NCBI GenBank assembly: GCA_028279805.1
Contig: JANQMZ010000007.1
Location: forward strand, 150,001-182,000
Source of the DNA: an archaeon
GTDB taxonomy: Archaea; Iainarchaeota; Iainarchaeia; Iainarchaeales; JANQMZ01
DNA: 32,000 bases
Direction of reading: 5' to 3'
Shown: positions 8,934 through 29,200 of the stretch, piece after piece
Layout of the letters: the number at the start of each line of letters is the position of its first letter
Position numbering within the stretch: position 1 is the first letter of the stretch
Program-made: the position numbers and the translations under genes
Notes under the pieces: generated by a model
The model's input: the letters and a program-made list of their open reading frames with translations, nothing else
Databases searched by the model: none
Told to the model about the DNA's origin: nothing

Positions 8934-8937
8934 TATT

Positions 8938-11177: not shown

Positions 11178-12605
11178 ATGGAGCAAAGCTTAACTTTTGA
11201 TGATGTTCTTCTTTTGCCTGGGTACAGCAAGATTCTGCCCAAAGACGTTTCACTGAAAACAAAGCTTACAAAAAAAATCAGCTTAAACATTCCTCTTATT
11301 TCTGCCGCGATGGACACTGTTACAGAATATGAAACGGCTGTCAGCATGGCACAACAAGGCGGCATCGGAATAATTCACAAAAACATGTCAATTGCAGAAC
11401 AGGCTGCACAAGTCAAAAAAGTTAAAAGAAAAGAATTTTTGATTGTAACAGATCCGGTAACAGTTTCGCCTGATACAACTCTGGCAAAATTAAAAGAATT
11501 AAAAATAAAAAAAGGAGTTTCAACTTTTCCTGTTTTAAAAAACAATAAAGTTGTTGGAATAATAACATCAAGAGATGTTGAATTTGTTTCCGATTTGAAT
11601 AAAAAAGTAAAAAATTTTATGACAAAAAAAGTTGTAAGTGTTAAAAGCAAAATCAGCACAAAAAAAGCAAAACAATTATTGCAAAAACATAAAATTGAAA
11701 AACTTTTAATAATTGATTCAAAAAAAAGATTAAAAGGCCTGATTACCGCATCCGATATTGAAAAAACTGAAATGTTTCCTGATGCTGCAAAAGATTCAAA
11801 AGGAAGATTATTAGTCGGAGCTGCAGTTGGTCCCATGGATGATGAAAGGGCAAAAGCATTGGTTGCAGCAGACGCCGATGTAATTGTTATAGATACAGCA
11901 CACGGCCATTCAAAAAATGTTATAAGCGCGGTTAAAAGGTTTAAGAAAAAATTTAAAGTGCAGATTATTGCAGGAAATGTTGCAACCGGACAAGGTGCAA
12001 AAGCTTTAATGAAGGCCGGGGCAGACGCAGTGAAAATAGGTGTCGGGCCCGGAGCCATATGTACAACAAGAATCATTTCAGGAGTTGGAGTGCCGCAAAT
12101 TTCCGCAATAAAAGAATGTGTTAAAGCTGTTAAAGGCAAAATACCGGTGATTGCAGACGGAGGCATCAAATATTCAGGAGATATAACAAAAGCTTTAGCT
12201 ACAGGTGCAAATTCTGTTATGACCGGCTCTCTTTTTGCAGGCTGTGATGAAACGCCTGGTGAAATTATTTACATGAACAACAGAAAATTTAAGCAATACA
12301 GGGGAATGGGTTCAATAAGTGCAATGAAAAAAGGTTCAAAAGACAGGTATGGCCAAAAACATGTCATTGAAGAAAAAAAATTAGTGCCAGAAGGAATTGA
12401 AGGCACAGTACCATACAAGGGAAAAATTTCTGAAATTATTTTTCAAATGCTCGGCGGCTTAAGAGCCGGAATGGGCATGACAGGCTCTGAAAACATTGAA
12501 CAGTTAAGAAAAAAAACAAAAATGGTTCAGATTACACAAGCATCATTGCAGGAAAGCCATCCCCATTCGGTTCAAATAACATCACAATCACCAAACTATC
12601 CTTAA
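11178..12605 (+). CDS. guaB: IMP dehydrogenase with CBS pair
   Basis: Motifs present are LTFDDVLLLPGYS, ISAAMDTVTE, GIGIIHKN, VIVIDTAHGHS, VGVGPGAICTTR and GGIKYSGDI. I prefer the ATG at 11178 over the GTG at 11169. Confidence 0.95.
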   Translation: MEQSLTFDDVLLLPGYSKILPKDVSLKTKLTKKISLNIPLISAAMDTVTEYETAVSMAQQGGIGIIHKNMSIAEQAAQVKKVKRKEFLIVTDPVTVSPDTTLAKLKELKIKKGVSTFPVLKNNKVVGIITSRDVEFVSDLNKKVKNFMTKKVVSVKSKISTKKAKQLLQKHKIEKLLIIDSKKRLKGLITASDIEKTEMFPDAAKDSKGRLLVGAAVGPMDDERAKALVAADADVIVIDTAHGHSKNVISAVKRFKKKFKVQIIAGNVATGQGAKALMKAGADAVKIGVGPGAICTTRIISGVGVPQISAIKECVKAVKGKIPVIADGGIKYSGDITKALATGANSVMTGSLFAGCDETPGEIIYMNNRKFKQYRGMGSISAMKKGSKDRYGQKHVIEEKKLVPEGIEGTVPYKGKISEIIFQMLGGLRAGMGMTGSENIEQLRKKTKMVQITQASLQESHPHSVQITSQSPNYP

Positions 12606-12653: not shown

Positions 12654-13316
12654 ATGCCTGAAAGTTTTTTGGACTGGGATTCAGGAATAAAAAAAATTTG
12701 CACCAAAATCTCTTCTCTTGCAGAGCAAAAAAATCCCATTATAATAGGAATTACAGGGCCAAGTTGTGCCGGCAAAACAACAATTTCAAAAATTGTTTCA
12801 CAAAAAGTCAACGGTTCCTTGTTGTCAATGGATGATTATTATAAAGAACGGCAAAAAAATGAATATCATAAAAAACTGCAAAAAACTCCTGTTAAAAATT
12901 TTGATTCACCTGATTCAGTTGACATTAAACTTTTTGCAGAACATTTATATCTTTTATTAAACAAAAAAACAATAAAAAAACCTGTGTACGATTTTACAAT
13001 CAGCAACAGAACCGGTTTTGAATCGTTCAGTTCAAATAATATAATAATAACTGAGGGTTTATTTGTTTTCAACCCTGAAATTTCCAAATTTTTAGATTTA
13101 AAAATTTTTTTGGATGCTCCCCGAAATTTAAGGCTTGAAAGAAAAATTGAAAGAGATGTTTTTGAAAGAAACAGAACCAAAGAATACGCTTTAAACCAGT
13201 TTTTGGATAACACTGAACCGTTTGAAAAAAAACACATTTACCCTTTTAAAAAACACGCCGATATTTTAATTCAAAACATAAAAAATTCTGTCTTGACAGA
13301 TAACAATAACATATAA
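12654..13316 (+). CDS. udk: Uridine kinase / phosphoribulokinase-family nucleoside kinase
   Basis: It has the P-loop IIGITGPSCAGKTTISK, followed by LSMDDYYK and IIITEGLFVF, as in Udk-family kinases. Confidence 0.7.
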   Translation: MPESFLDWDSGIKKICTKISSLAEQKNPIIIGITGPSCAGKTTISKIVSQKVNGSLLSMDDYYKERQKNEYHKKLQKTPVKNFDSPDSVDIKLFAEHLYLLLNKKTIKKPVYDFTISNRTGFESFSSNNIIITEGLFVFNPEISKFLDLKIFLDAPRNLRLERKIERDVFERNRTKEYALNQFLDNTEPFEKKHIYPFKKHADILIQNIKNSVLTDNNNI

Positions 13317-13386: not shown

Positions 13387-13663
13387 TACTAATCTTACCG
13401 ATGTGGAAAAAGAAATTTTTGAACTGGTTTTTCACAACTGGCCTTCAACCGCATTGGAAATTGCTGAACATTTTAAGGAAGATTTGTCAACACGTGAAGC
13501 TAAAACTCGTGCTTCAACTAAATATTCTTATTATTTGAAAAAACTGGTTGAAAAAAAGTTTTTGTTCTCAAAAAAAGCCGGCAATGCTTTAATTGTCTGG
13601 CCGATTGAAGTTGAAAAATATCGAACAATGCATAACATTTTCAGGGGCGATATTGATGCTTAA
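13349..13663 (+). CDS. Small winged-helix DNA-binding protein
   Basis: 104 aa. EKEIFELVFHNWPSTALEIAEHF...YYLKKLVEKKFLFSKKAGNALIVWP has a helix-turn-helix plus wing layout. It shares the x-W-P-(L)-S/T-x-x-E-I signature with the N-domains of the five paralogs at 17063-21312. Confidence 0.6.
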   Translation: MPQNLKNSVLTDNTNLTDVEKEIFELVFHNWPSTALEIAEHFKEDLSTREAKTRASTKYSYYLKKLVEKKFLFSKKAGNALIVWPIEVEKYRTMHNIFRGDIDA

Positions 13664-14225
13664 CCAGTTTTTTGACAAGTTTATTTTTACAAACGGCATT
13701 AAATACAAGCATTCAAATTTTTTTCTGCACGAAATTCCTTTTTTGATAATGCCTGTTGATTTAATGATTGGCATTGTTGGCAATGAAAATGAAGAATTTC
13801 AACGCGAGTTGTATTATTCTGTTAAAGAATCAGTGAAAAAAAATCTGGTTAAAAGGTTTGGAATTAATTTTAAGTTTGATGAAAAGCAAAAATTTGTTCA
13901 ATTTTTGGAAAAGTTTTTTGTCGCATCCGGTTGGGGTGATATTCATAATGTTGACATTGATTTTGAAAAAAAACGCGCATTGTTAAACTTGAATCATAAT
14001 CCTTTTTCCTCTCATGTCAAACCCAAACCAAAAAATCCGGCGGACCATTTAATGCGCGGAATTTTAGCCGGCATTTTTTCTTTTGCTTTTGATTCCGACA
14101 TTGAATGTGTTGAAGTTGAATGCCTGATTAAAGGAGATAACAGATGTGAATTTGTTTTGCAAAGGCCTAAAGAACTGGATCTGGAAAAAGAAACAACCAG
14201 GAGGCAAATCAGGTTAAAAATTTAA
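13656..14225 (+). CDS. V4R (4-vinyl reductase-type) small-molecule-binding domain protein
   Basis: The C-terminal signature is HLMRGILAGIFSFAF...ECVEVECLIKGDNRCEFVL (C-x7-C-E-F). I prefer the ATG at 13656, which overlaps the upstream stop as ATGCTTAA and gives 189 aa, the same length as the second V4R protein. Confidence 0.7.
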   Translation: MLNQFFDKFIFTNGIKYKHSNFFLHEIPFLIMPVDLMIGIVGNENEEFQRELYYSVKESVKKNLVKRFGINFKFDEKQKFVQFLEKFFVASGWGDIHNVDIDFEKKRALLNLNHNPFSSHVKPKPKNPADHLMRGILAGIFSFAFDSDIECVEVECLIKGDNRCEFVLQRPKELDLEKETTRRQIRLKI

Positions 14226-14310: not shown

Positions 14311-15057
14311 ATGAACAGAAGTCAAACAGGAATTGAAGGATTGGATAAGGCTTTAAACGGCGGTATTCCTGAAAAAAACATTGTTTTGGTTTCAGGCGGA
14401 GCCGGAACAGGTAAATCCACTTTGTGCTTGCAGTATTTGATTAATGGTGCTTCAAAATTTAACGAAAAAGGCTTATACATCAGCACCGAGCAAAGCGATA
14501 AGGAATTAAAAAAACAGGCAGCCGGTTTTGGCTGGGACCTAGAAAAACTTGAGAAAGAGGGCAAAATCAAGCTTGCTTATTTTGATGTTACAGGTGGTGA
14601 CAGTTTTATGAAAAGAATTCAGGAATTGTTTGACGAATTCAAGCCTCAAAGAATTGCTGTTGACTCTTTAACAACTTTAACAGATTCTTTAATGATTTCC
14701 GACATGACAGATGAAACTTCTTTTTCTCTGGTTCAGGTAGCTGAATCTGTTTCACCAATTCCAAGAACAGAACAAGTCATAGCAAAAACAATTTTATACA
14801 AATTAATCAAAGAAATCAGAGAATTTGGAGTAACAACGCTTATGACATCTGAATTATTTGAAGGAATTACTAGGCTAAGTGCCGACGGTGTCAGCGAGTT
14901 TATAACTGATGGTGTTTTTTTACTTTATTATTGGGAAATTGGAGAAGTAGAAGAACACGCTATGAAAATAAGAAAAATGAGATATACAAAGCATGAAAAA
15001 GGAGTGATGAGATATTCGATAGAAAACGGAATCACGTTAAAGAAGGAAAATGAATAA
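14311..15057 (+). CDS. Single-domain KaiC/RecA-superfamily ATPase
   Basis: GIEGLDKALNGGIPEKNIVLVSGGAGTGKSTLCLQYL contains Walker A, and RIAVDSLT is Walker B. The 248-aa length is typical of archaeal KaiC-like ATPases. An AAAGGTG ribosome-binding site lies upstream. Confidence 0.8.
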   Translation: MNRSQTGIEGLDKALNGGIPEKNIVLVSGGAGTGKSTLCLQYLINGASKFNEKGLYISTEQSDKELKKQAAGFGWDLEKLEKEGKIKLAYFDVTGGDSFMKRIQELFDEFKPQRIAVDSLTTLTDSLMISDMTDETSFSLVQVAESVSPIPRTEQVIAKTILYKLIKEIREFGVTTLMTSELFEGITRLSADGVSEFITDGVFLLYYWEIGEVEEHAMKIRKMRYTKHEKGVMRYSIENGITLKKENE

Positions 15058-15060
15058 ATT

Positions 15061-15630
15061 ATGGATATTTTAAAAAAATTGTTAATGATGAAGGAAATCC
15101 GATTTGAAGAAGGTGTGATTACCTTGCTTAACAATCGAACCGTTATGAATTCCATATCTCTTCCTGTTGGAATAGGAATATTTTTGGAAAAAAACCCTGA
15201 GATGATTCCAAAAATTTATGAAGAAATTAAAGAGGAACATAGAAGAGGTTGGGGTAAAACAATTGATGAAAAATATAAAATGAAACCAATAGAGTATTTG
15301 AATGAAATGTTTGAAACAAGTAATTTAGCAGGCTGGGGGAAAACCGAATTTGTTGATTTTGACGAATCAAACACAAAAGGGACTTTTAGGACACTGAGGG
15401 CCCCTATTGCCGAGGCACTAAAGGGAAAAGCAAAATTACCAACTGAACATTTATGGAGAGGAATGGCTGCAGGAACTGCTAGTGTTATTTTTAAAAAAAA
15501 TTTAGATTTTATTGAAACAAAATGTCTTGCTTTAGGTTCTAATTATTGTGAATATAAATTTTTTCCTAGAAAAAAAGTCACAAGTGAAATAAAAAAAGAG
15601 TTTGGTTATCAAGTTAATTTTAATATTTAG
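15061..15630 (+). CDS. V4R domain protein (second copy)
   Basis: 189 aa. The signature HLWRGMAAGTASVIF...ETKCLALGSNYCEYKF is C-x7-C-E-Y. It starts 3 nt after the KaiC-like stop. Confidence 0.7.
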   Translation: MDILKKLLMMKEIRFEEGVITLLNNRTVMNSISLPVGIGIFLEKNPEMIPKIYEEIKEEHRRGWGKTIDEKYKMKPIEYLNEMFETSNLAGWGKTEFVDFDESNTKGTFRTLRAPIAEALKGKAKLPTEHLWRGMAAGTASVIFKKNLDFIETKCLALGSNYCEYKFFPRKKVTSEIKKEFGYQVNFNI

Positions 15631-16327: not shown

Positions 16328-17005
16328 ATGGGCAGACATGTTTTAATAATTCCTGATGGAAACAGAAGATACGCTAGACATCATGGTATGAGTAATGAAC
16401 AGGTTTATGCTTTTGTTGCCAAAAAGACAACTGTTGATTTGATGAAATATTTTTTAATCGATAGAGAATTTTCTGATTTTAGTATTTTTTTGTTGTCTAG
16501 AAGTAATTTAACTAGAAGAAGAAACGAGGAAGTTGATCCCATTATTGAAGCTCAGCAAAGAATGTGTTATGATTTAATGGATGATCCTTTTTTTGAAGAA
16601 AAAAACATAAAGTTTAATGTTTATGGAGATATGAGTATTTTGCCTGGGAGATATAGAAGAGCTTTAAAAAGATTGGTTGAAAAATCGGAACATAGAGTTG
16701 GTAAAAATTGTAATTTTTTGGTTGCTTATGATGGAACTTATGAACTGATTAGTGCAGTTAAAAAAATTAATGGAGATTTTGAAAAAATAAATGAATCAAA
16801 TTTTTACAATTATTTAGATTTAAATAAATCTGTAGATTTACTTATAAGGACTGGTTTTGAAAAAAGGCTTTCAGGTGCTCCATTGCCTCAAACATCTTTT
16901 TCAGAACTTTATTTTGCAAGTTTTTATTATCCCCAATTTACTGTTGAAAAAGCTGAGGCAATAATAAAAGAATTTGACAAAAGAGACAGAAGATTCGGAA
17001 AATAA
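16328..17005 (+). CDS. uppS: cis-Prenyltransferase (undecaprenyl-diphosphate synthase family)
   Basis: The motifs LIIPDGNRRYA, DLLIRTGFEKRLSG and C-terminal RRFGK match the UppS family signature. Confidence 0.85.
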   Translation: MGRHVLIIPDGNRRYARHHGMSNEQVYAFVAKKTTVDLMKYFLIDREFSDFSIFLLSRSNLTRRRNEEVDPIIEAQQRMCYDLMDDPFFEEKNIKFNVYGDMSILPGRYRRALKRLVEKSEHRVGKNCNFLVAYDGTYELISAVKKINGDFEKINESNFYNYLDLNKSVDLLIRTGFEKRLSGAPLPQTSFSELYFASFYYPQFTVEKAEAIIKEFDKRDRRFGK

Positions 17006-17006
17006 G

Positions 17007-17032
17007 AAAATCAACCATTTGGTTGATTTTTT
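17007..17032. promoter_or_regulatory. Palindromic element A (AAAATCAACC-ATTT-GGTTGATTTT, then a T-run)
   Basis: It has 10-nt perfect inverted arms. It sits 2 nt after the uppS stop, so it could act as a hairpin-plus-T terminator, and about 30 nt upstream of the first paralog ATG. The arms recur at 21461-21500 and 22969-23008. Confidence 0.5.
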
Positions 17033-17062: not shown

Positions 17063-17902
17063 ATGGCTAATCAGATACTATTACCACATTTATCCTGGAA
17101 TGAAAAATCAGCTAAGGGCACGATTATTGGTGTTTTAGCCAATGAATGGCCTCTTTCTACAAAAGAGGTTTTTAATCGGCTGAAAAAACGACATTCTTTC
17201 TCTGTTTCCTATCAAGCTGTTCACAAGGCTTTGAATGAGTTGGAAAAAGCTGAAATAATAAAAAAAGAAAACAAAAAGTATTCTTTGCACAGGAAATGGA
17301 TTGAAAACATTAAATTTTTTGCAAAAGATTTGGATTCAAAATATAAAAACAATACTAAAGCAACACCCTATTCTGAAGGAACTATTACGCTAACATTTGA
17401 TTCAATAGCAAATCTTGGAAGATTTATCATATACGATTATTTGCATGGAGATTATAATCCAAAAGGAAAGGATTGTGTTTGTTTGTGGAATCATTGCTGG
17501 CCTTTGATTGGTTTAAGTGATCAAGATCACCAAAAAATAGTTGATGCACTGGACATAGCTACACACTATTCTATAACAAAACAAAACACTTATTTGGATG
17601 ATTTGTTCACAGAAAGCTTAAACAAAATTGGTAAAAAATGCAAAACTGGAATTGACTATTTTGGATTAGGAGATTACATAATTGAAGGGGATTATGTTCT
17701 TCAAACAATTTATACTCCGAAATTTGCAAAATACTGGAACAAAGTTTACAAAACAACAAACAAAGAAACAATGGACATCGCAAAAATGTTCAAATTGTAT
17801 AACAAAAAAACAGAAATAACCGTAGTAATATTCAAAAACCAGCAATTTGCAGACAAATTAAGACAAGAAACTTTAAAACATTTTAGCGAGGGTTCAAAAT
17901 GA
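17063..17902 (+). CDS. Paralog 1 of 5: wHTH N-domain plus uncharacterised ~190-aa C-domain
   Basis: 279 aa. Family blocks present are NEWPLSTKEV...VSYQAVHKALNELEKAEII, WNHCWPLIG, GDYIIEGDYVLQTIY and EITVVIFKNQQFADKLRQETLKHF. Confidence 0.8.
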   Translation: MANQILLPHLSWNEKSAKGTIIGVLANEWPLSTKEVFNRLKKRHSFSVSYQAVHKALNELEKAEIIKKENKKYSLHRKWIENIKFFAKDLDSKYKNNTKATPYSEGTITLTFDSIANLGRFIIYDYLHGDYNPKGKDCVCLWNHCWPLIGLSDQDHQKIVDALDIATHYSITKQNTYLDDLFTESLNKIGKKCKTGIDYFGLGDYIIEGDYVLQTIYTPKFAKYWNKVYKTTNKETMDIAKMFKLYNKKTEITVVIFKNQQFADKLRQETLKHFSEGSK

Positions 17903-18720
17903 ATGGTGTTTCTGCAATTCCTCTTCTTTCCGATTCTTCAAAGAATGCAATTATTTCTTTACTTGTTGAAGAACAATCTTTAAAAGCAAAACAAATTCAT
18001 GAAAAACTGGAAAAAAATCATGGAATAAATGTAAGTTATCAAGCTGTCCACAAATCTTTAAGTGAATTGGAACAATCTGGTGTTGTTACTAAAACCAGTT
18101 CAGAATATAAAATTGACAAAAATTGGGTGGATAATTTAGAAATTTTTGCTAAAAATTTTTTGGAACAACATTATGGTTCATCTGATTTTGTTGATACGCA
18201 AACGATTGTAACAAATTCTTTGTACGAAACGGATATGGTTTTACTTGAAGCGGCTTTAAAAATGCTTGAAAACATGGAAGAAAAACCAATTCTTTGCATT
18301 CAGTGGCATCATGCATGGGTTCCATTGTTTTTAAATAAAAAAACTTATGCAGCCATAAAAGAGTTGATCCATAGAGTAGACTTGTATGATTTGATTAAAG
18401 GGGAAACTGTTGTAGACAAATGGTGTGCAAAATATTGGATAGAACGAGGTGTAAAATTAAAACTCGGAGTTGATTTGGGAAACAGTGCTGATCTAGTCAT
18501 CCTAGGGGATCATATTGTGCAAGTTTTTTATCCACAAGAACTAAGAAAAGAATTAGGTAAAGCATTTTCCAGCGTGAGTAAATTTTCAGAACTTAACACT
18601 GGTGAATTGTTCGAAAAAGTTTTCATGAAGCCAACAAAAATAACAATTGTCACAATGCGAAATAAACTTTTGGCTGAACAGTTGAGAAGAGAAACAATGA
18701 ATCATTTTAAAGGTGATTGA
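17899..18720 (+). CDS. Paralog 2 of 5
   Basis: 273 aa. Its start overlaps the paralog 1 stop (ATGA). Family blocks present are VSYQAVHKSLSELEQSGVV, WHHAWVPLFL, ADLVILGDHIVQVFY and KITIVTMRNKLLAEQLRRETMNHF. Confidence 0.8.
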   Translation: MNGVSAIPLLSDSSKNAIISLLVEEQSLKAKQIHEKLEKNHGINVSYQAVHKSLSELEQSGVVTKTSSEYKIDKNWVDNLEIFAKNFLEQHYGSSDFVDTQTIVTNSLYETDMVLLEAALKMLENMEEKPILCIQWHHAWVPLFLNKKTYAAIKELIHRVDLYDLIKGETVVDKWCAKYWIERGVKLKLGVDLGNSADLVILGDHIVQVFYPQELRKELGKAFSSVSKFSELNTGELFEKVFMKPTKITIVTMRNKLLAEQLRRETMNHFKGD

Positions 18721-19591
18721 ATTGCCTATTAATTTTACTGTCCCGGAATTGAGTGTTGATACTAATTCTTCAAAGGATACAATAATTTATGTGCTTTCAA
18801 ATGATTGGCCTTTAACTGTGACACAAATAAACAACAGAATATCTGATCTGTATGGCTTAAACATAAGTTATCAGGCGGTTCATAAAACATTGCTTCAACT
18901 GGAATTGGATAATATTGTTTTAAGAAAAGGAAAAAAATTTGAATTGAAAAAAAGCTGGATTAAAAATTTGAAAAATTTTGCAACAACACTTGAAAACAGG
19001 TACATTTTAAACGAAAGAAAAAAAAACATAAAATATAAAGGAAAACCAATTACATTAAAATTTGACGACATGAATGATTTTTTCAGAGAATTTTTATCAT
19101 TACTTGGAAGCAATCAATTAATTCAAAACAATAATAGGGCAATATATGCAATTCAAACACATGGATGGTTTCCATTAGGATTCAGATTCAGCGATTACAA
19201 TTTATTATCAAAACTGGTTAAATCAAATAAAAAAGGAGTTTGGTGTGTGATACAAAAAGAACTACCTTTTGATAAAGTTGTTGCACAAACATATAAAAGA
19301 GCTGGGTTAAATGTTTTAACAGGAATCAAAGACGACGCCTTCAAACACGGAGTTATAGCCCAGGGTGATTTTGTTTTTGACATTAACTTTTCACCTGCAA
19401 CAACAGAATTAGTGGAAGAGCTTTACTCAAAAACTCAAAATTTAAGCGTTTACTTCAGAGAATTCACAAAACAATTCACAGAAAAAAAAGATGTTAACAT
19501 AAAAATTAAAATAAGAAAAAATCCGTCTTACGCAAAATTGTTACAAAAACAAGTGTTGTCTCATTTTAAGGAGGAAGAACAAAATGATTAG
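18713..19591 (+). CDS. Paralog 3 of 5
   Basis: 292 aa from the GTG at 18713. The TTG at 18722, preceded by AAGGTGA, is an equally good start. Family blocks present are NDWPLTVTQI...ISYQAVHKTLLQLE, QTHGWFPLGF, HGVIAQGDFVFDINF and NIKIKIRKNPSYAKLLQKQVLSHF. Confidence 0.8.
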   Translation: MIELPINFTVPELSVDTNSSKDTIIYVLSNDWPLTVTQINNRISDLYGLNISYQAVHKTLLQLELDNIVLRKGKKFELKKSWIKNLKNFATTLENRYILNERKKNIKYKGKPITLKFDDMNDFFREFLSLLGSNQLIQNNNRAIYAIQTHGWFPLGFRFSDYNLLSKLVKSNKKGVWCVIQKELPFDKVVAQTYKRAGLNVLTGIKDDAFKHGVIAQGDFVFDINFSPATTELVEELYSKTQNLSVYFREFTKQFTEKKDVNIKIKIRKNPSYAKLLQKQVLSHFKEEEQND

Positions 19592-20468
19592 TGATACTTC
19601 TTCACATGGTTACTCAAACCCTTCTTCAACTAAGAATGCTATTGTTTCAACTTTATCTGAGAAATGGCCGCTTTCTGCAAAAGAGATACATTCCTCAATA
19701 ATTAATGCTTATAATATAACCGTGTCTTATCAAGCAATTCATAAAAAATTAATTGAATTAGAAAAAGAAACTATTATTGAAAAAAACGGAAAAAATTATT
19801 CTTTAAACAAAATTTGGATTTCAAACAACAAAGAATTTTTTAAAAAATTAACATCAAAATATGAAAACACTGTTGGAAAATATGAAATTGATCCAGATTT
19901 TGAAGGCACTATAAAATTAGATTTTCCAGATTTAACACTTTTACCTGTTACAATTGCCAGTCTTATTGGAAAAAAAGTTTTTATAGGAAATGGTCCAAAC
20001 ATTCTCACCGGATTTATAGATCATGCTTTGTGGCCATTAAGATTTAATTTTATGGATTTTGAAACTTTAAGAAGAATGTGTGTTAATATGGATGAAGCTT
20101 ATGCTATTATTGGAAATAATCAGCCATTTGATCAGTGGATAGCAAAACAATATCTAAGAGGCGGGTTTGATAAAGTCAAACTTGGAGTTAACTTTACAGG
20201 TAATGGAGATTATTTAATCGTTCACGGAGACTCTATAATTCAAATAACCATGAAAGAAGAAACCAAAAAATTTTTGGATAATATTTACGAAAAAATCTAT
20301 AATCTGTCAGATTTATACAAATATTATTTAAAAGCAAGAAATAAACAAATACCTGAATCAACAGAGGTTTTAATAACAAAAAATCCTGATTTGGCAAGTT
20401 TTTTGAGAAAGAAAATGATAGATATTTTCAAAGAGGACATTAAGATGGATAATAAGCTCCAAGCTTGA
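19584..20468 (+). CDS. Paralog 4 of 5
   Basis: 294 aa. Its start overlaps the paralog 3 stop by 8 nt (ATGATTAG), and AGGAGG lies upstream. Family blocks present are EKWPLSAKEI...VSYQAIHKKLIELEKETII, IDHALWPLRF, GDYLIVHGDSIIQITM and EVLITKNPDLASFLRKKMIDIF. Confidence 0.8.
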   Translation: MISDTSSHGYSNPSSTKNAIVSTLSEKWPLSAKEIHSSIINAYNITVSYQAIHKKLIELEKETIIEKNGKNYSLNKIWISNNKEFFKKLTSKYENTVGKYEIDPDFEGTIKLDFPDLTLLPVTIASLIGKKVFIGNGPNILTGFIDHALWPLRFNFMDFETLRRMCVNMDEAYAIIGNNQPFDQWIAKQYLRGGFDKVKLGVNFTGNGDYLIVHGDSIIQITMKEETKKFLDNIYEKIYNLSDLYKYYLKARNKQIPESTEVLITKNPDLASFLRKKMIDIFKEDIKMDNKLQA

Positions 20469-20493
20469 TGACTATTAATTTTAAGTGATTTTT

Positions 20494-21312
20494 ATGAGTT
20501 ATCAGGATTTGGAAACAGTTGGAGGAAAAAATTCAACTAAAAATTTAATTATAAATGCTTTAAGATTTAAGAACGATTTTACTACAAAACAGATTTATTT
20601 TTTTTTAAAAAAAGAATTTGGTTTAAATTCCTCTTATCAATCCGTTCACAAAGCATTGAAAGAACTTTCAAGTGAAAAAATTGTTTTTAAAAAAAACAAA
20701 AAATATTTTTTAAACCGGGAATGGATTCAAAATAACAAAATGTTTTTTGAAGAATTAGCTGATAAAAAAGTGGATTTAACACGACTTGAAAATCAAACAA
20801 TTAGCTTGTCTTTCAATTCTTATCATGAATTTATGGATAAAATGCTTGACATTTTTGCAAAAGAAAGAGAATTATTTCCAAACAATTTATGCGTAACTTA
20901 TCAAAATCATTTATACTGGACTATGAGTTTATCCAAAAATCAGTATAACAAGCTTAAAATTTTAGGTTCTCATGGAGGCTATATTGCCTGCAATGGAAAT
21001 TCTTTTTTTGACAAAGTTTTGGCAACAATATACAAAAAAGTGGGCTATGATGTGAAAACAGGTGTAAATTATTCAAACAATTTTGATTTTGTTGTATATG
21101 GAAACATAATTCATCAAATATTTTTTTCAGATAAACAAAAAAAAGAAATTAATATAATTTCAAAAAAATCAAAAAAAACTGAAGATATCTTTGAACAAGG
21201 ATTTCATGAAAAACTTTTTGAAAAACCCGGAAAAATAAATGTAGTTATTTTCAAAAATAAAGAATTGGCAGAACAACTGACAAATGATGTTTTAAAACAG
21301 GTTAAAAATTGA
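20494..21312 (+). CDS. Paralog 5 of 5 (most divergent)
   Basis: 272 aa from the ATG at 20494 (the ORF track uses the GTG at 20485). Family blocks present are SSYQSVHKALKELSSEKIV, YQNHLYWTMSL, FDFVVYGNIIHQIFF and INVVIFKNKELAEQLTNDVLKQV. Confidence 0.75.
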   Translation: MSYQDLETVGGKNSTKNLIINALRFKNDFTTKQIYFFLKKEFGLNSSYQSVHKALKELSSEKIVFKKNKKYFLNREWIQNNKMFFEELADKKVDLTRLENQTISLSFNSYHEFMDKMLDIFAKERELFPNNLCVTYQNHLYWTMSLSKNQYNKLKILGSHGGYIACNGNSFFDKVLATIYKKVGYDVKTGVNYSNNFDFVVYGNIIHQIFFSDKQKKEINIISKKSKKTEDIFEQGFHEKLFEKPGKINVVIFKNKELAEQLTNDVLKQVKN

Positions 21313-21460
21313 AAGAGGCCTCAATCTGAAGCCTCCTCTGCCTTTCAAGGGGTACCAACTCTCTCCTTGTAAAGTGGATAGGGCGCCCCTGTTGGAGCGC
21401 CGGAGCAGGCATCTCTCGCACGAGAGTAAACGCCTGAAATAACTCTGACGCGAGTAGTAA
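21313..21460. ncRNA. GC-rich, highly structured RNA candidate of unknown class; strand unresolved
   Basis: This stretch is about half G+C by eye, against AT-rich flanks. Nested helices can be read directly: 21315-19/21331-35, 21342-50/21365-74, 21382-88/21394-401, and 21406-10/21432-36 enclosing CTCTC-GCAC-GAGAG. Hairpin-plus-T-run terminators exist for either orientation. Only implausible Arg/Leu-rich ORFs cross it. Confidence 0.5.
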
Positions 21461-21500
21461 TATACCTTTGGTTGAAAAAAAATCAACCAAATAGTTGATT
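21461..21500. promoter_or_regulatory. Palindromic element B (TTTGGTTGA-A7-TCAACCAAA-TA-GTTGATT)
   Basis: It contains three TCAACC/GGTTGA half-sites. Its reverse complement aligns with element C at 30 of 40 positions by hand. It abuts a TATA-like GGTATATTA on the minus strand and a T8 run (21503-21511) on the plus strand. Confidence 0.5.
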
Positions 21501-22968: not shown

Positions 22969-23008
22969 AATCAACTAAATGGTTGATAAAAAATCAACCA
23001 AACGTATT
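22969..23008. promoter_or_regulatory. Palindromic element C (AATCAAC-TAAAT-GGTTGAT-A5-ATCAACCAAA), immediately upstream of a TATA-like GTATTTAAG
   Basis: It has three TCAACC/GGTTGA half-sites in the same order and spacing as the reverse complement of element B. The TATA-like box lies about 50 nt upstream of the ATG at 23058, and a GGGGGAGTGG ribosome-binding site lies between them. Confidence 0.5.
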
Positions 23009-23057
23009 TAAGACAATGTATGGTAATCCTACAAGCAGGGGGGAGTGGAATGAAAAA

Positions 23058-25454
23058 ATGAAAAGGTTAATCCTGACTTTAATTTGTTTAATTTTATTGT
23101 TTTCAAGTGTTTTTGGATGGTGGAATGCAAGCTGGGAGTTCAGGCAGCCTTTAACCCTTTCAACTTCAACTCTTTCCAATGATGTTTTAAACGACCATTC
23201 TATTTTGGTTAAAGTTGATTCAACAAACACGGATTTTTGGAACAGTGTTAAAAGTGATGGAAAAGATGTTCGTTTTGTTGCTGCAAACGATTTAACTGAA
23301 TTAACTTATCATATTGAAAAATTTGATTATTTTGGACAGGAAATGATTGCATGGGTTAAGGTAACCGATACTTTCAGTTCTGTTTCCAATACAAACATTT
23401 TCATGTATTATGGCAATCCCAACGCTTTTGGAAATGAAAATGAAGCCGGAACTTATCCTGCTTATTATAAAGCTGTTTACAATTTCAATGAAAATTCCGG
23501 AACAATTTTGGACAAAACTTCCAATAACAATGATTCAATTTTACAGGAAATTAATGCTTACCAGGTTAACGGCAAAATGAATGGAGCTGTTCAAACAATA
23601 GCTTCATCAAACCATGCCACTGTTCCCGATTCAAATTCTTTGGATTTGGGTTCAAACGGTTCCATTTCTTTTTGGATAAATTTTGGTTCAGATTTTCCTT
23701 CAGGGCATTCCTCTGACATTTATTTGATTGAAAAAGACGGTCCCCCTTTATCTTCAAACATTTTGATTTTTCAAAAAAGCAACGGAAAACTTGGATTTTT
23801 GCTTGGAAACGCATATGATTATTCAAGCAAAAGTTTGTGGACCGGCGGAACCTGGCATAACATAATTTTAACATGGGACGGCGTGTCCAAAAAAGCTTAT
23901 GTAAATGCTTCAATAAACGATGGCTTTGATGTGGCAAGCGGGGATTCCTGGAAAACAAATCTTGCAGATTTAACAATTTTTAATAACAGTAATAAAAACA
24001 GAAGCGGTTCGGCGGACCATGATGAAATAAGATTTTATAATATTGCATTAAATTCTGATGAAGTAAGCCTGTTATACAAATCTGAAAACAATAGCCTGAT
24101 TTCTTTTGGAAACCAGGAATCTTCAGGCGGAAGTGCACCTCCCTCTGGTGACCAAAACATTTGGGTTACATTTGTTTCCGATTCAGGAAGCACAACAGTT
24201 GATGTTCCGGAAGACACTTTAACTGTTGCAGGAGGAGATGGTATAAGCACAAGCATTTCCGGTGACACTTTAACAATTACCAATACAGCTTTAAGTGCAG
24301 GTGTTGCAGGAATTTTTGCCGGGCTTGGAATTGACCTTAATGCCAACACCGGTGACGTTTTGGTTTCAGTCAGCAACATTGTTGCATTGTTGTCAGGCAG
24401 GGCAGGAGGACAACACTTGTATGGCGGCATTAATGCCGGTGAAAATTTAACTCTTGAAAGCACTGCTAATGCCAGCAAAGGCTTAATCAATTTATTAGAT
24501 AATACAAGAATTGGTTGTAATGGTGATGCCAACAGTGCATCCCTTGTAACCTGTGGCGAACTAAAATCAGAGTCAGACACAGGGGGCTTAACCGTTTCTC
24601 CAAATGCTGCCGGTGCTGGAAATCCGGGAATTTTTTCTTATCTGGGCAACAGTCTGCATTTTGGTGCCAATAATTCCACATCCGGCTTGGTTTTGAATGC
24701 TGATAATGATGTTGGAATTGGCGGCATTGGTGCTTTTGCTGATGCAAAGCTTCATGTTGTTGAGGATAGCGTCAACAAACTTGTTTTGAAGGCTGTTAAG
24801 AATGTTGCAAATTCTTTTGTTCCTGTTGTTCAGATGTCGCAAAGCAATTCAAACGGCAACACTGAGGTTTTGGAACTGGTGCAGAATGATTCTGATGAAC
24901 CTTTTGTTGAATTTGTTGGCTCTAAAGGCAATGCAGCTTCAATTGACACTAACATTGATAAAAGACTTGCTTACATGTTAAAAACCACAATTGAATCCAA
25001 CAGCATTGAAGAATCTGTTTATTTGCCTGTTTATGGGGACGGGCATGAGGATCCTGACAATGTCATTGAGTCAGAGGTTTCTCAAAGCAGCGGCTTTTCA
25101 ACAAATTCTTTGGTTTTTGTTGATGTTACAAATCCTGCCGGCTTTGATTTAAACATTCCTAAAAAGAGCACGGTTATTCTGAATGCAATGGTTACCCATT
25201 TCAATAATGTTGGCGGAACAAATAATTTTTTCAGGTGGAAGCTTGGAAATAATGAATCTGTCAGCGTTGCACAGGAAACAATTCCACAGTTTAACCAGGT
25301 TACCACGACTTATGTTCAGGCAATTTTCAAAAACATTGAACCCGGCATTTACAATGCCAAACTTCAAATGAAAGTAAGCGGCGGAACAGGCATAATCGCC
25401 TTTTCCACCAACGATTCAGTAGCCCAGTTAACAGCGGTAACATATGAAGAATAA
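23058..25454 (+). CDS. Large secreted protein: signal peptide, DUF2341, LamG/concanavalin-like domain, and a shared ~430-aa C-terminal module
   Basis: The ATG at 23058 gives the signal MKRLILTLICLILLFSSVFG. WWNASWEFRQPLTL...DGKDVRFV...AWVKV...IFMYYGNPNA matches the DUF2341 pattern. A LamG-like region follows (ISFWINF...WHNIILTWDG...DEIRFYN). The C-terminal module (24162-25454) is homologous to 29909-31192. Confidence 0.85.
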   Translation: MKRLILTLICLILLFSSVFGWWNASWEFRQPLTLSTSTLSNDVLNDHSILVKVDSTNTDFWNSVKSDGKDVRFVAANDLTELTYHIEKFDYFGQEMIAWVKVTDTFSSVSNTNIFMYYGNPNAFGNENEAGTYPAYYKAVYNFNENSGTILDKTSNNNDSILQEINAYQVNGKMNGAVQTIASSNHATVPDSNSLDLGSNGSISFWINFGSDFPSGHSSDIYLIEKDGPPLSSNILIFQKSNGKLGFLLGNAYDYSSKSLWTGGTWHNIILTWDGVSKKAYVNASINDGFDVASGDSWKTNLADLTIFNNSNKNRSGSADHDEIRFYNIALNSDEVSLLYKSENNSLISFGNQESSGGSAPPSGDQNIWVTFVSDSGSTTVDVPEDTLTVAGGDGISTSISGDTLTITNTALSAGVAGIFAGLGIDLNANTGDVLVSVSNIVALLSGRAGGQHLYGGINAGENLTLESTANASKGLINLLDNTRIGCNGDANSASLVTCGELKSESDTGGLTVSPNAAGAGNPGIFSYLGNSLHFGANNSTSGLVLNADNDVGIGGIGAFADAKLHVVEDSVNKLVLKAVKNVANSFVPVVQMSQSNSNGNTEVLELVQNDSDEPFVEFVGSKGNAASIDTNIDKRLAYMLKTTIESNSIEESVYLPVYGDGHEDPDNVIESEVSQSSGFSTNSLVFVDVTNPAGFDLNIPKKSTVILNAMVTHFNNVGGTNNFFRWKLGNNESVSVAQETIPQFNQVTTTYVQAIFKNIEPGIYNAKLQMKVSGGTGIIAFSTNDSVAQLTAVTYEE

Positions 25455-25487: not shown

Positions 25488-26243
25488 ATGAAAAAAAATA
25501 TTTTGCTAATATTGATTTTGATTTTACTAAGTTCTTTTTCATTCGCATCTGAAGATATTTCGGAATCTATGAAAAAACCAAGTGAACCGATAGAAATTAA
25601 GCAGATAGTTAAGGAAACAGGTCCTTTGCCGGAGCATATTGACCCTAATTTCACTTTGGAACAAATTCATAGAATGCTAGAAGGATTTTTGGCGGATAGA
25701 GGAATCATCAGCGATGAAACCGTTTTTTATGATTTGGGTCTTAACGAGATAAATTTAATTGATTCTATAAAACTTGAACGTTCTTTTGATGAGTCGGAAT
25801 ATATAATGCGTCCGATATATTTGTTTGTTTTTGTAATAAAGAATGATAATGCAAATTCTGTTTCTTATGAATTATTTTCAGGGGATTTTGATGGTTTGAC
25901 TGGAGAAAATATTCGTTTTGATAAACCTATAAAAACAATCTTTTACAACTTGAAAACAAAGGATGATGTAGTTGAATTAATGAAAGATAGATTTGGTTTT
26001 TCTGAAAACGAAATAAAAGTCAGTTTGGTTTATTATACATCTAGTTGGAGAGTGAAAGTTGATGCTGGTAGCTATGAAGTTTATGATAATGGGTTAATAG
26101 ATGGTCCTTATAAGGCTCAAACAACTGGTTCCTCAAGCACTTCGGTAAGACAAGCACCGCGAACAGTAGCATCATATTATCCGTTAATTTTTGGATTTAT
26201 AATAATTGTAATAGGTTTGTTTTTTCTGGTGAGAAAAAAATGA
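25488..26243 (+). CDS. Small bitopic membrane protein with two PepSY-like repeats (signal peptide plus C-terminal TM anchor)
   Basis: It has the signal MKKNILLILILILLSSFSFA and the C-terminal anchor YYPLIFGFIIIVIGLFFLVRKK. Two segments end in PepSY-like motifs (YELFSGDFDGLTGENI and WRVKVDAGSYEVYDNGLI). Its stop overlaps the protease start (ATGA at 26240-26243). Confidence 0.6.
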   Translation: MKKNILLILILILLSSFSFASEDISESMKKPSEPIEIKQIVKETGPLPEHIDPNFTLEQIHRMLEGFLADRGIISDETVFYDLGLNEINLIDSIKLERSFDESEYIMRPIYLFVFVIKNDNANSVSYELFSGDFDGLTGENIRFDKPIKTIFYNLKTKDDVVELMKDRFGFSENEIKVSLVYYTSSWRVKVDAGSYEVYDNGLIDGPYKAQTTGSSSTSVRQAPRTVASYYPLIFGFIIIVIGLFFLVRKK

Positions 26244-29200
26244 AAAAGCATTATGTATTTTTTTTTCTTGCACTAATTTTTTCCTTTGCTTTAGTTGGAT
26301 CTGACATAAATAATTCAGAAAATAACACTTACAAGCTTCAAGAAAGAAGCTATTTGACAATGCTTTCACCTAGCAATGAAATGGAAATGCATCCCGACCC
26401 TTCCTTCGAAATAAAATTATTAAATGGATTTTTTATCCCTAAAGCTGGTGTTGGGATAGATATAACCAATATTGAAAAAGAAAATACTGGAGAAGAAATT
26501 TATGCTTTGGTTCAATTTCAAAGAGGCTTGATTGATTCTGATGCCCATGATTTTCTTGAGAATCAAAATTCTTTAGAATTGGGCCGTGTTCCTGACAATA
26601 CCTATGTTATCAAAATCCCAATCAACAATCTGAAAAATTTTTTTGAAAGTTATCTGATTAGATGGATCAATATTCTTCAACCAGAACAGAAAATCCATCC
26701 GAATATAGCTGAACAAGATGAATCCTTGGAAGTTTTGGTCACAGCATTTGAAAACATGACTCAAGATCAAATAGAAAAAATTTCTGTTTTGTCAGAAGAA
26801 GTGATTTTTGATGGAAAAGACTCTGAATCAATTCTTGTGAAAGCCACTTATTCAAATATTTTTAAAATTGCCAAGTTGAACTTTATTCAATGGATTTCAC
26901 CTAGAGGAACAGGTAAAACATCTCTAGACAACAGTGCAAGAGTTATCTCAGTTCCTTATGTCTGGTCTCAGGGAAATACTGCTTCCGATGTCACTGTTGG
27001 GATAATAGATTCTGGACTTGATTTTGATCATCCACACTTTTTTAATCCAACTATTCCAATCTACAAATCTAAGGATTGGGTTGATGGGGGAATGAATCCA
27101 GAGGATGAACAGGTGCATGGTACCCTTATGGCTGGAACTATTTCTGGATCTGGTAGTAGTTCTTCAAGCTCAAGATATTATAAAGGCATTTCAAATAGAG
27201 CAGCTTTGACAATAGAAAAGGCTTTCGATAGTCATGATGACTGGGTAGCACCACATCCTGCTTTAAATCCTGTTTGGAATTGGATATTGGATCCTAATCA
27301 AAATTTTAGTTTTAATGATAATCAAGATGCAGATATAATAAACAATAGTTGGGCACATTATTTTACTTATGGTGCCTATGAGCAAGCGTCTCAAAAAGTT
27401 GATAAAGTTGTTAGAGGAGAATTATCAAATGGAAAAAAAATTGTAGTTGTTTTTGGTTCAGGAAATGATCATGCAATTTCTAATGGGGCTGGAGTTGAAC
27501 CCCCCGCCACTGCAAAAAATGCTATAACTGTTGGTGCCAGTGCTGATTTCAGATCTTCAACTGAAGAATCTCAATATTCTCAGGATTTTTGTCCGCCTGA
27601 TTCACGCTGTAACTACGACAGTTTGAATGGATATGTAATGGAATATAGTGGAAGGGGCACTCTTGATGGAAGAGTCAAACCAGACATTTTAGCTCCAGGA
27701 TCCACCACTTTTGGTCCAGTAGCTCAAACTACAGTATATGCTTCTGGTGATGGAACAAGTGCTGCTGCTGCGCATGTTTCTGCTGTAGCTGCTCAAATCT
27801 TGCAAGCATATTCAACGGCATCACCTGCCTTGGTGAAGGCTCTTCTTGTCAACAATGCAGTGGGAGCTGGAACAACAGACAACAAGAATTATGATGAAGG
27901 ATGGGGGAGACTAAGCGCATTTGAATCAATTTACTGGTTAACGGATGATTACACCGCCACGTTCAACGAATTTAATCTTGGTGGACCAGGTACAGGATTA
28001 AGCAATGAAGGATATCTCGAAAGATATGTTCCTGCAGATGCAGACAGAATTGTTGTTACAATGGCTTATGATGATGAACCGTCATTTCTTTTGGGTTCTG
28101 TTCCAACTCTTAAAAACAATATTGATTTGTATTTGCAGAAACCCAATGGGTCTCAGTTGTATGTTAACGATGATTCTGTGAATAATGTTGAAAAATATGT
28201 GATTGATGATCCTGATGAAGGGAATTGGAGATTTTATGTAAAATTTGTTAATCCACAATGGTTAAGTACTCAAGATGCGGCGATGAACCTAAAAATTATT
28301 AGGAAAACTCAGCCATCTTCAACAGATATTTTGAGTACTTCTGGTCCAATTAATGTTGATCAAGGAGAAAATTTCAAAATTACTGCGAATGTTCATGCTG
28401 TTGGATTGGTTAACTATGATATGTGGACAAGAATAGATGTTCCAAATGGACTAACCTTGACTTTGCCTGGTTTTTATGACAGTATGGATGGGGATAAAAA
28501 TGTGCTAGGTGATATCCCTGCAGATGTTTTTGTGAATACTGGTGATTGGGTTATAAGAGCTGATGATCCTGGGACTTATAATGTTAGAATTTATGCACAG
28601 GGAAAAAGAAAAGATGGATCAAATATTTTTGAAGTTGATACAACAGTTGTGAATGTAAATCCAACAGAAAAAGACCCTGGAGATTTATGTTCTTCACATT
28701 CTGAGTGTGGAACTGGTTATTGTGAGGGTTCTGCTTCAAATCCTGCAAGATGTTGTGTTGCGGTTCCTCCACAAGATGGTTGGTATGGAGGAGGCAATAC
28801 GAGTACAGCGCAATGTGGTGTTGTTGATAATGATGCTGCATCTATTTACAGGGATTATTATTGTGATGCTTCCGGTTCTGCTCAAATAGAGCCAACAGAT
28901 GCCCAGGATTGTGATTCAAGTGATGGTTGGTATGGTGGTGGAAATACTGCTGGTTGTGGTGATGACCCTTCGTCAATTTGGAGAGATTATTATGTAACAA
29001 CCAATGACAACACTTGCACTTATACTGAATCTTGTAATGGAAACAATTCTTTTGATTGTGATGCCCAGGATGCTTGTGCTCCTTATTGCAGCGGTAATAC
29101 TGCAATTTTTGGAACGGATTATTATGTTGTTGAAAATACCAACACGTGCACTTCAATTGAAGAGAGTGAGGATTGTACTGTAAAAGATTCAACTGATTCT

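Follow-up and report, generated by a model that had tools for sequence, protein, structure and literature searches.

A DPANN-wide family of winged-helix proteins with a phospholipase D-like domain, found in variable tandem arrays: candidate GGTTGA-reading regulators of TrmB/TrmBL2 architecture

Five consecutive open reading frames (ORFs) of 273-294 residues occupy positions 17063-21312 on the plus strand of a 32,000-nucleotide stretch of archaeal DNA (contig JANQMZ010000007.1 of assembly GCA_028279805.1; the whole stretch is called the window below, all positions are counted within it, and its G+C content is about 30%). They encode paralogous proteins in which a winged helix-turn-helix (wHTH) is followed by a domain predicted to adopt the phospholipase D (PLD) fold, and they belong to a family for which we propose a role in transcription regulation. 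Clustering of this family yields several old subfamilies. Paralog 1 (17063-17902; 279 residues), with the wHTH, a long helix and a PLD-fold domain that lacks the HKD motif, falls into a 15-member subfamily that usually stands first in arrays. Paralog 2 (17899-18720; 273 residues) represents the largest subfamily, with 20 members, and C-domains of its type recur as the extra, wHTH-less units of natural fusion proteins. Paralog 3 (18713-19591; 292 residues, GTG start) is divergent and lies nearest to the gene-4 subfamily, forming a singleton cluster whose best match is the second gene of the array at locus L028 (36%; here and below, L numbers denote loci and P numbers proteins). Paralog 4 (19584-20468; 294 residues) is one of the 18 members of a subfamily in which duplication inside arrays is common. 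Paralog 5 (20485-21312) has 275 residues if it starts at the GTG at 20485 and 272 if it starts at the ATG at 20494; as the GTG-start sequence is missing from the protein collection and the 272-residue top match (P0065) is present in it, the deposited start is probably the ATG. Its subfamily has four members, occurs solo elsewhere, and in other loci sits within V4R-family-KaiC-V4R cassettes (L001, L017, L023). A further "last-position" subfamily of six members is missing from the window. The junctions are exactly as first noted: an ATGA overlap at 17899-17902, 8-nt overlaps at 18713-18720 and 19584-19591, and a gap before gene 5 of 16 or 25 nt, depending on which of its two starts is used.

The original prediction had described these ORFs as paralogs that align end to end, and this holds: a MAFFT alignment over their full length gives 27-31% identity to gene 1 and 23 invariant columns. 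The four shared blocks that had been recognised by eye are equally real, being kept family-wide in 106 members. Conservation is highest in the recognition helix (S49 87%, Y50 98%, Q51 100%, A52 90%, V53 84%, H54 96%, K55 100%), and extends to the central block (H144 74%, W146 60%), the hairpin block (D204 86%, G209 75%, D210 80%, Q214 52%) and the C-terminal block (I252 73%, N259 78%, A263 93%, R267 66%). Such agreement greatly exceeds what chance would give. The family profile matches each array ORF with E=1e-82 to 1e-99, in a profile built with these ORFs included, and relatives from other genomes, which are independent in this respect, reach E-values down to 1e-85. The window paralogs are 36-52% identical to proteins of other genomes, which exceeds their identity to their array neighbours and bears out the earlier view of an old array that has been retained. 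Averaged over the paralogs, identity is 41% for the wHTH and 23% for the C-domain.

An AlphaFold2 (AF2) model of the gene 1 protein, computed from a 58-sequence alignment, has a pLDDT (predicted local distance difference test) of 88.7. It shows helices at residues 17-27, 33-44 and 50-62, a wing of strands at 66-75 and a long helix at 77-95, followed by an α/β domain; the three helices and wing, together with sub-threshold wHTH matches in Pfam, uphold the winged helix that had been proposed for the N-terminus. When this model is compared with the PDB by Foldseek, TrmBL2 chains are the seven best matches (E=3e-9 to 2e-7), and the alignments cover 287-301 columns, that is, the full length. The global template modelling (TM) scores to TrmBL2 are low (0.33-0.39), as expected if the domain orientation differs. 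For the C-domain, the next matches after TrmBL2 are the single-HKD PLD nucleases NucT (6ehi), Zucchini (4ggk) and Nuc (1byr), with probability 1.00 and TM-target scores of 0.51-0.62. The end of the Nuc-type domains also resembles, by eye, the C-terminal strand-helix block xVVIFKNxxxAxxLR of the family. Of 106 members, 105 have no HxK(x)4D motif, and in the remaining one it stands at a non-homologous position; the hairpin equivalent to the HKD region reads x-D-[LTF]-x-[VI]-x-G-D. Because of this absence the C-domain, as modelled, is read as a catalytically dead, HKD-less PLD fold of the kind found in TrmB; its length is about 180 residues and not about 190 as first estimated. The dead PLD domain of TrmB is presumably the one that carries the label "PLDc_like_TrmB_middle" in CDD. 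The proteins (273-294 residues) stop right after the PLD-like domain, and the second, sugar-binding barrel of TrmB and TrmBL1 is not present. Going by the model, the whole protein, with its winged helix, long helix and PLD-like domain, has the architecture of TrmB/TrmBL2.

At the level of sequence families the result is a different one. Pfam yields only sub-threshold winged-helix matches (FUR, HTH_12, TrmB, PadR) and leaves the C-terminal 180 residues unmatched, and the wHTH models FUR and HTH_12 match more members than the TrmB model PF01978 does. NCBIfam, PADLOC and PHROGs give no match except for a Csa3-type wHTH in gene 2, which PADLOC detects with E=3.4e-6. The family profile has no match among PDB sequences, tblastn against plasmids finds none, a homologue search for further fusion proteins or TrmBL2 relatives returned almost nothing, and none of the papers in the literature collection searched describes the family. 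The statement that the C-domain belongs to no recognised family thus stands for sequence families (Pfam, NCBIfam, PADLOC, PHROGs and the PDB by sequence) and falls for the fold, which is PLD: structure prediction with Foldseek placed both the fold and the architecture, and profile searches with Pfam and hhalign gave no family. Likewise, the array had been put forward as an undescribed kind of system, of which only the family itself remains undescribed, as its fold can be placed and its design is that of TrmB/TrmBL2. Judging from the modelled fold and the sequence searches together, the proteins are built like TrmB regulators and make up an unannotated family of their own, whose architecture could have arisen by very deep divergence or by convergent fusion.

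In TrmB and TrmBL2 an HTH is joined by a dimerisation helix to the C-domain; the helix sets the HTHs on adjacent major grooves, and the dimers assemble into tetramers (PMC4877046). TrmBL2 of the Thermococcales (PF0496/TK0471; PDB 5bpd, 5bpi, 5box, 5bqt) resembles the present proteins in its length of about 264-290 residues, in its succession of wHTH, long dimerisation helix and α/β PLD-like C-domain, and in being, like them, without the sugar-binding barrel. It differs in that it shows no detectable sequence or profile similarity to the family and is a single-copy, highly conserved and largely non-specific chromatin protein, whereas the family is multi-copy, diverged, arranged in tandem arrays and associated with a specific palindrome. 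TrmB and TrmBL1 (Tgr) follow a one-component logic in which a wHTH dimer on a palindromic promoter operator is under the control of the C-domain, a logic that the family putatively shares, and their C-domain opens with the same PLD-like sheet. In these regulators the position of the operator relative to the TFB-recognition element (BRE) and the TATA box decides between repression and activation. The family lacks the barrel subdomain that carries six of the seven sugar-binding residues of TrmB/TrmBL1, and has the recognition helix S-Y-Q-A-V-H-K in place of the Tyr50/Asp51 signature. The glycolytic motif of the Thermococcales is TATCAC-N5-GTGATA, whereas the candidate operator of the family is built on GGTTGA. 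From PLD proteins in general the family is set apart by a C-domain without HKD that is fused to a DNA-binding head.

A word-indexed search retrieved 63 family matches, all annotated as "hypothetical", from Diapherotrites/Iainarchaeia, Micrarchaeota and unclassified archaea. An exhaustive hidden Markov model search of 1.84 billion representatives extended these to 2,119 at E<=1e-3 and 478 at E<=1e-30, and among species-representative genomes the family is present in Iainarchaeia, Micrarchaeota, Aenigmatarchaeota, Nanoarchaeota, Woesearchaeota and Pacearchaeota. The family is large, DPANN-wide and unannotated. Its relatives place the window itself in a DPANN archaeon, nearest to metagenome-assembled genomes (MAGs) of Iainarchaeia, and the contig that carries gene 1 measures 853 kb. 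A few taxon labels do not fit this picture. L023 (JAFCBY010000150.1) is a 2.2-kb contig with a V4R gene and two family genes that was binned as "Candidatus Falkowbacteria bacterium", a bacterium of the candidate phyla radiation, and L051, L052 and L057, assigned to "uncultured Methanosarcinales", have a wHTH-fusion gene and an operator that are almost the same as in the Nanoarchaeota MAG L055. These are probably mis-binned DPANN contigs, transfer being less likely.

To survey the arrays, we translated 69 related loci in all six frames and searched the ORFs with the profile of the family. Tandem arrays prove to be a trait of the family: the 58 arrays obtained comprise 36 solo genes, 11 pairs, four triplets, two quadruplets, four quintets and one octet. 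The original prediction had proposed a survey of array size and order; arrays have one to eight genes, and their subfamily make-up differs between genomes. For 77% of array members the closest relative is in another genome and not in the same array. The suggestion of a hetero-oligomer made in fixed stoichiometry is therefore unlikely, as this variability of size and composition disfavours one obligate complex.

The exhaustive search also recovered proteins of 369-644 residues with two or three matched stretches, among which at least nine distinct natural fusions pair one wHTH with two or three C-domains. P0021, P0066, P0067, P0069, P0071, P0076 and P0087 have one wHTH and two C-domains, and P0068 has one wHTH and three. 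The extra units begin cleanly at profile position ~95-105, without a second winged helix, a clean start that excludes artefacts of read-through. A gene-1-like unit comes first and a gene-2-like unit second in P0066, P0076 and P0021, matching the order of the two genes in the window. As evidence of the Rosetta-stone type, these sequences make it plausible that C-domains from distinct subfamilies work next to one another. A further architecture was seen in P0188 and P0200, which append a C-terminal HAD-type domain (with the DxDG motif FDIDG, recognised by eye) to the full wHTH-PLD-like unit, and in P0060, which appends a PF14336 domain to it.

The winged helix with the S-Y-Q-A-V-H-K signature is also found apart from the PLD-like domain. 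It is fused to a HAD hydrolase in L061 and L066, to a NACHT-HEAT STAND NTPase in L042 and to unassigned domains in L051/L052/L055/L057, L048, L063 and L064, and it occurs as a stand-alone protein of about 105-160 residues (e.g. L006:17312-17638 and L009:8742-9056). To judge by these sequences, it is a mobile module. It was encountered at further loci as well (L039, L058, L068, L069, L041, L046), and some of the C-domains fused to it have no Pfam match, one of them being GNAT-like by eye only.

A candidate operator of the array lies at 17011-17026, where a perfect TCAACC-N4-GGTTGA palindrome, with half-site centres 10 bp apart, ends 37 nt before the gene-1 ATG and is followed by a T/A-rich, TATA-like stretch. 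The same element is found upstream of family genes in L005, L006, L008, L061 and L066, and across genomes, as in the window, a palindrome is present in the regulator's own promoter. A composite candidate operator, GGTTGA-N7-TCAACC-N4-AGTTGA, follows directly after a TAATATA (TATA-like) box at 21470-21498, and this module of about 70 nt is conserved at two other loci: L028 keeps it immediately downstream of its array, which has three genes, and L042 in the promoter from which two wHTH-family genes diverge. The third site, at 22971-22999, is the same composite in the opposite orientation (TCAACT-N4-GGTTGA-N7-TCAACC). It is located at the 5' end of an 823-residue ORF, which starts at or after 22983 and is, by this sequence context, a candidate for a further regulon member. 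The window thus has one TCAACC-N4-GGTTGA and two GGTTGA-N7-TCAACC, as against 0.00-0.03 expected, and the three sites contain five of the six exact half-sites in its 1.9 kb of intergenic DNA.

These palindromes had been singled out as targets for binding assays, and they are real, their importance being strongly supported by the comparison with other genomes. In 995 kb, which comprise the window and the related loci, GGTTGA-N(5-8)-TCAACC occurs 19 times as against 0.55 expected, 17 times with N=7 or 8, and TCAACC-N-GGTTGA occurs 11 times, always with N=4, as against 1.05 expected; the palindrome classes are over-represented 10-35 times. When one mismatch is allowed, 27 of the 91 wHTH-family genes that stand first or solo have a site in their upstream region, as against about 2% expected, and the family sites end about 15-100 nt before the gene start. 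De novo counts of hexamers in 83 family upstream regions rank GGTTGA as the top non-AT word, just behind TATA-like words (35 regions, p=3e-16), whereas among 437 control upstream regions a half-site occurs in 14% and a perfect palindrome in 1.1%. A frequent composite reads GGTTGA-N7/8-TCAACC-N4-GGTT[GT]A. Because the same sites precede wHTH genes fused to different domains (HAD in L061 and L066, NACHT-HEAT in L042, unassigned domains in L051/52/55/57, L048, L063 and L064), and stand-alone wHTH genes as well (L006, L009), the motif appears to track the winged helix, whatever the C-domain, as expected for the operator of the wHTH. In L005, L009 and L042 the sites lie in divergent promoters, and for these cases the reading of the palindromes as terminators is rejected. 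The sequence comparisons strongly support the palindromes as the predicted operator of the family. By analogy with TrmBL2, the 10-bp spacing of TCAACC-N4-GGTTGA would fit a wHTH dimer, paired through the long helix, on adjacent major grooves.

The genes around the array point to a signalling context. A V4R-KaiC-V4R cassette on the same strand (13593-14225, V4R protein; 14311-15057, KaiC-like ATPase; 15061-15630, V4R protein) lies 1.4 kb upstream; the genes preceding the array are V4R, KaiC, V4R, HD and cis-prenyltransferase, and those following it code for a DsbA-like protein and a glutaredoxin. In other genomes, the 150 ORFs that lie no more than two genes away from a family member include 13 for KaiC-like proteins, eight for V4R, six for FIST, eight for FAD-binding/geranylgeranyl-reductase (GGR)-like proteins and six for UbiA prenyltransferases. 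With the window's own proteins as probes, KaiC and/or V4R is found in 34 of the 69 loci, often right beside the family genes, in arrangements such as V4R-family-KaiC-V4R (L001, L017), V4R-KaiC-V4R-wHTH (L041) and family-KaiC (L030, L038, L045, L047). Up to 500 nt from a family gene, KaiC genes have a density of 19.7 per 100 kb, as against 0-3.7 farther away. KaiC-like ATPases have reportedly been proposed as signalling hubs of archaea, and what the family shares with such neighbourhoods is that its genes repeatedly adjoin those for KaiC-like ATPases of a single domain and for proteins with V4R (and FIST) sensor domains. The link is one of conserved neighbourhood, which would be compatible with KaiC/V4R acting upstream of the regulators. 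A palindrome-like sequence before the cassette, GGTTTA-N7-TCAACC with one mismatch at 13056-13074, was rejected as an operator, being inside the 3' part of a uridine-kinase-like gene and too far from the cassette (~300-540 nt upstream).

In the mechanism that we infer, which involves DNA binding to the GGTTGA motif, a sign of regulation, heteromers, a sensing role of the C-domain and an interaction with KaiC/V4R, the long helix would pair two subunits as in TrmB/TrmBL2, and the dimer would bring its pair of recognition helices onto GGTTGA half-sites spaced by 10 bp in TCAACC-N4-GGTTGA. Dimers may then associate via their PLD-like domains, which would extend binding to the composite GGTTGA-N7-TCAACC-N4-GGTTGA. 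Since the sites lie on or right against the promoters of the array itself and of some few further genes, their occupancy would set transcription. A common DNA-reading head joined to strongly diverged C-domains could bring several inputs, be they ligands or partner proteins, into one operator code, and these inputs might act through separate homomers or through mixed oligomers of the paralogs. The adjacent KaiC-like ATPase and V4R proteins would be likely upstream signalling partners.

On this evidence the five genes probably encode autoregulated, GGTTGA-reading transcription regulators of TrmB/TrmBL2 architecture, and we hold it possible, if only tentatively, that mixed oligomers of the paralogs are the functional species. 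Several observations weigh against these proposals. PF01978 is not reached at its gathering score by any member: two of 58 score below threshold, the better with E=0.0043 and 17.3 bits as against a cut-off of 25.6. For PF11495 no match appears among the 58 members at E<=0.01, nor among the five proteins of the window at E<=1. An hhalign comparison of the family profile (58 sequences) with 10 TrmBL2-type sequences, taken from metagenomes after the TrmB N-terminus had been confirmed against 3qph and a TrmBL2 segment obtained, gives a probability of 0.2% and E=0.26, with a TrmBL2 alignment that is shallow (Neff, the effective number of sequences, 2.2). This negative result and the unmatched Pfam models do not support membership in TrmB at the sequence level, and as these comparisons detect no sequence homology to TrmB/TrmBL2, the analogy with TrmB mechanics is one of fold alone. 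The AF2 model of the natural fusion P0069 has confident domains and a pTM (predicted TM) of 0.48; Foldseek returns two-lobed PLD proteins first for it (vaccinia F13, 9fhk, E=2.6e-10; PPK, 2o8r; Tdp1), but its two lobes do not superpose on these bilobed enzymes (TM 0.26-0.33), and the predicted arrangement does not bear out their canonical pseudo-dimer. About two thirds of the family upstream regions have no palindrome with at most one mismatch. No operator was found near the start of any of 66 KaiC/V4R ORFs, and the cassette was therefore dropped as a visible part of the regulon: KaiC and V4R are neighbours of the family and not visible members of its regulon, and the loci differ in this from archaeal KaiC-like signalling neighbourhoods. 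Finally, the loci come from related lineages, so that neighbourhood and motif counts are not fully independent.

The strongest competitor of mixed oligomers is a set of independent sensors, in which homodimers or homotetramers, each with its own ligand, compete for the same operators, heteromers have no function and the operon layout would be due simply to duplication and co-regulation. The earlier idea of a bank of sensors is in this sense still viable, given that sequence divergence is far greater among the C-domains (23% identity) than among the winged helices (41%), and it agrees with the variable size (1-8) and content of the arrays, with the 36 singletons among the 58 arrays and with the solitary occurrence of the gene-5 subfamily in other genomes. 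Fusions that combine C-domains of different subfamilies in one chain speak against it, as do the tight translational coupling at four junctions, typical of co-assembling subunits, and the fact that PLD-fold domains normally work as pairs; we consider functionally independent sensors somewhat unlikely. At the other extreme stands an obligate hetero-pentamer of fixed 1:1:1:1:1 stoichiometry, for which one may cite the five translationally coupled genes and the age of the retained paralogs. Arrays of 1, 2, 3, 4, 5 and 8 genes with varying subfamilies, among them the three genes of the closest relative L028, and the lack of five conserved orthologous positions make it very improbable.

A second group of alternatives questions what the proteins do on DNA. 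They may coat it with little sequence preference, as TrmBL2 does, and act as abundant nucleoid-associated proteins, the paralogs diversifying chromatin states: TrmBL2 is the best full-length structural match and shares the absence of the sugar-binding subdomain, and several copies in a small genome could raise the dosage. However, family genes are preceded far more often than expected by a specific palindrome whose spacings are fixed, the near-invariant recognition helix suggests base-specific reading, this wHTH also comes joined to HAD, NACHT and further domains, the way one-component regulators are built, and there is no sequence homology to TrmBL2, so that a chromatin role appears improbable. 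Hardly better placed, and if anything a little worse, is the view that the palindromes have nothing to do with the proteins, being sites of another factor, terminator hairpins or small repeats in coincidental synteny. The 17011 site does lie 6 nt after the stop codon of the upstream gene and before a T-run, and synteny is common to related genomes; yet the sites precede wHTH genes with differing C-domains and neighbours in several DPANN lineages, those of L005, L009 and L042 are in divergent promoters where no gene ends, and perfect palindromes are as rare in control upstream regions as stated above. That the proteins are active PLD-type nucleases or phosphodiesterases targeted by the wHTH, for instance in defence or DNA processing, would accord with the fold, with the nucleases among the best matches and with conserved polar residues that remain (H144, D179, D204, D210, N259), but almost every member lacks HxK(x)4D, PADLOC and PHROGs match nothing beyond the Csa3-type wHTH, and the neighbours are signalling and housekeeping genes and not defence islands, which leaves enzymatic activity highly unlikely. 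A reading as a defence system was rejected in the same way, there being no PADLOC system and no HKD motif.

Beyond the array, several features of the window deserve mention. Right after gene 5, at 21303-21481, is a GC-rich island (59% G+C), the strongest in the window. Within it an element on the minus strand (~21310-21462) folds better than shuffled sequences (z=-3.7), and its counterpart downstream of the L028 array (11950-12098) keeps seven of 24 predicted pairs by compensatory changes and a conserved AGAGAGUUGGU stretch. The island matches no Rfam family and, according to ARAGORN, contains no tRNA; the element is a candidate structured non-coding RNA transcribed away from the TAATATA box and composite operator (21455-21498). 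Farther downstream are two very large ORFs (22983-25454, 823 residues; 26240-31192, 1,650 residues), which are possibly surface proteins under the same control. The 823-residue ORF has an N-terminal hydrophobic segment, and as its annotated TTG start is preceded or overlapped by the 22971-22999 composite, its true start is probably a downstream Met. The cis-prenyltransferase gene (16328-17005) directly upstream of the array has a counterpart near the L003 array, and isoprenoid/lipid genes beside the family could reflect shared synteny or hint at the regulon. At 8094-9846 are two adjacent genes for RimK-like ATP-grasp proteins (279 and 302 residues), the first of which matches the Pfam model weakly (E=1e-6).

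In DPANN archaea the genomes are tiny and hardly any transcription factors have been characterised, and here one 850-kb genome devotes five adjacent genes to a family without annotation. While the PLD fold of the C-domain and the overall TrmB/TrmBL2 design are already known, what is new is a DPANN-wide, unannotated family not detectable as TrmB by sequence, with variable tandem arrays, multi-C-domain fusions, a predicted shared operator and an association with KaiC/V4R. The design of a wHTH joined to a PLD-like domain occurs far more widely than one would gather from the Pfam TrmB models, and the natural fusions suggest how the paralogs pair. The predicted operator, TCAACC-N4-GGTTGA and GGTTGA-N7/8-TCAACC, is concrete and testable. 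It may even be that the family is the main DNA-binding output layer of DPANN archaea, with combinatorial mixed dimers and tetramers, of which the wHTH-C-C(-C) fusions would be a frozen form, that read one GGTTGA code at a small regulon comprising their own arrays among others and are switched by adjacent KaiC/V4R modules; we regard this as rather doubtful, and if true it would amount to a previously unrecognised signalling pathway from KaiC to transcription. The recurrent link to KaiC-like and V4R proteins bears on the long-standing question of their role in archaeal signalling, and the fold, the operator, the fusions and this link together make that question experimentally approachable.

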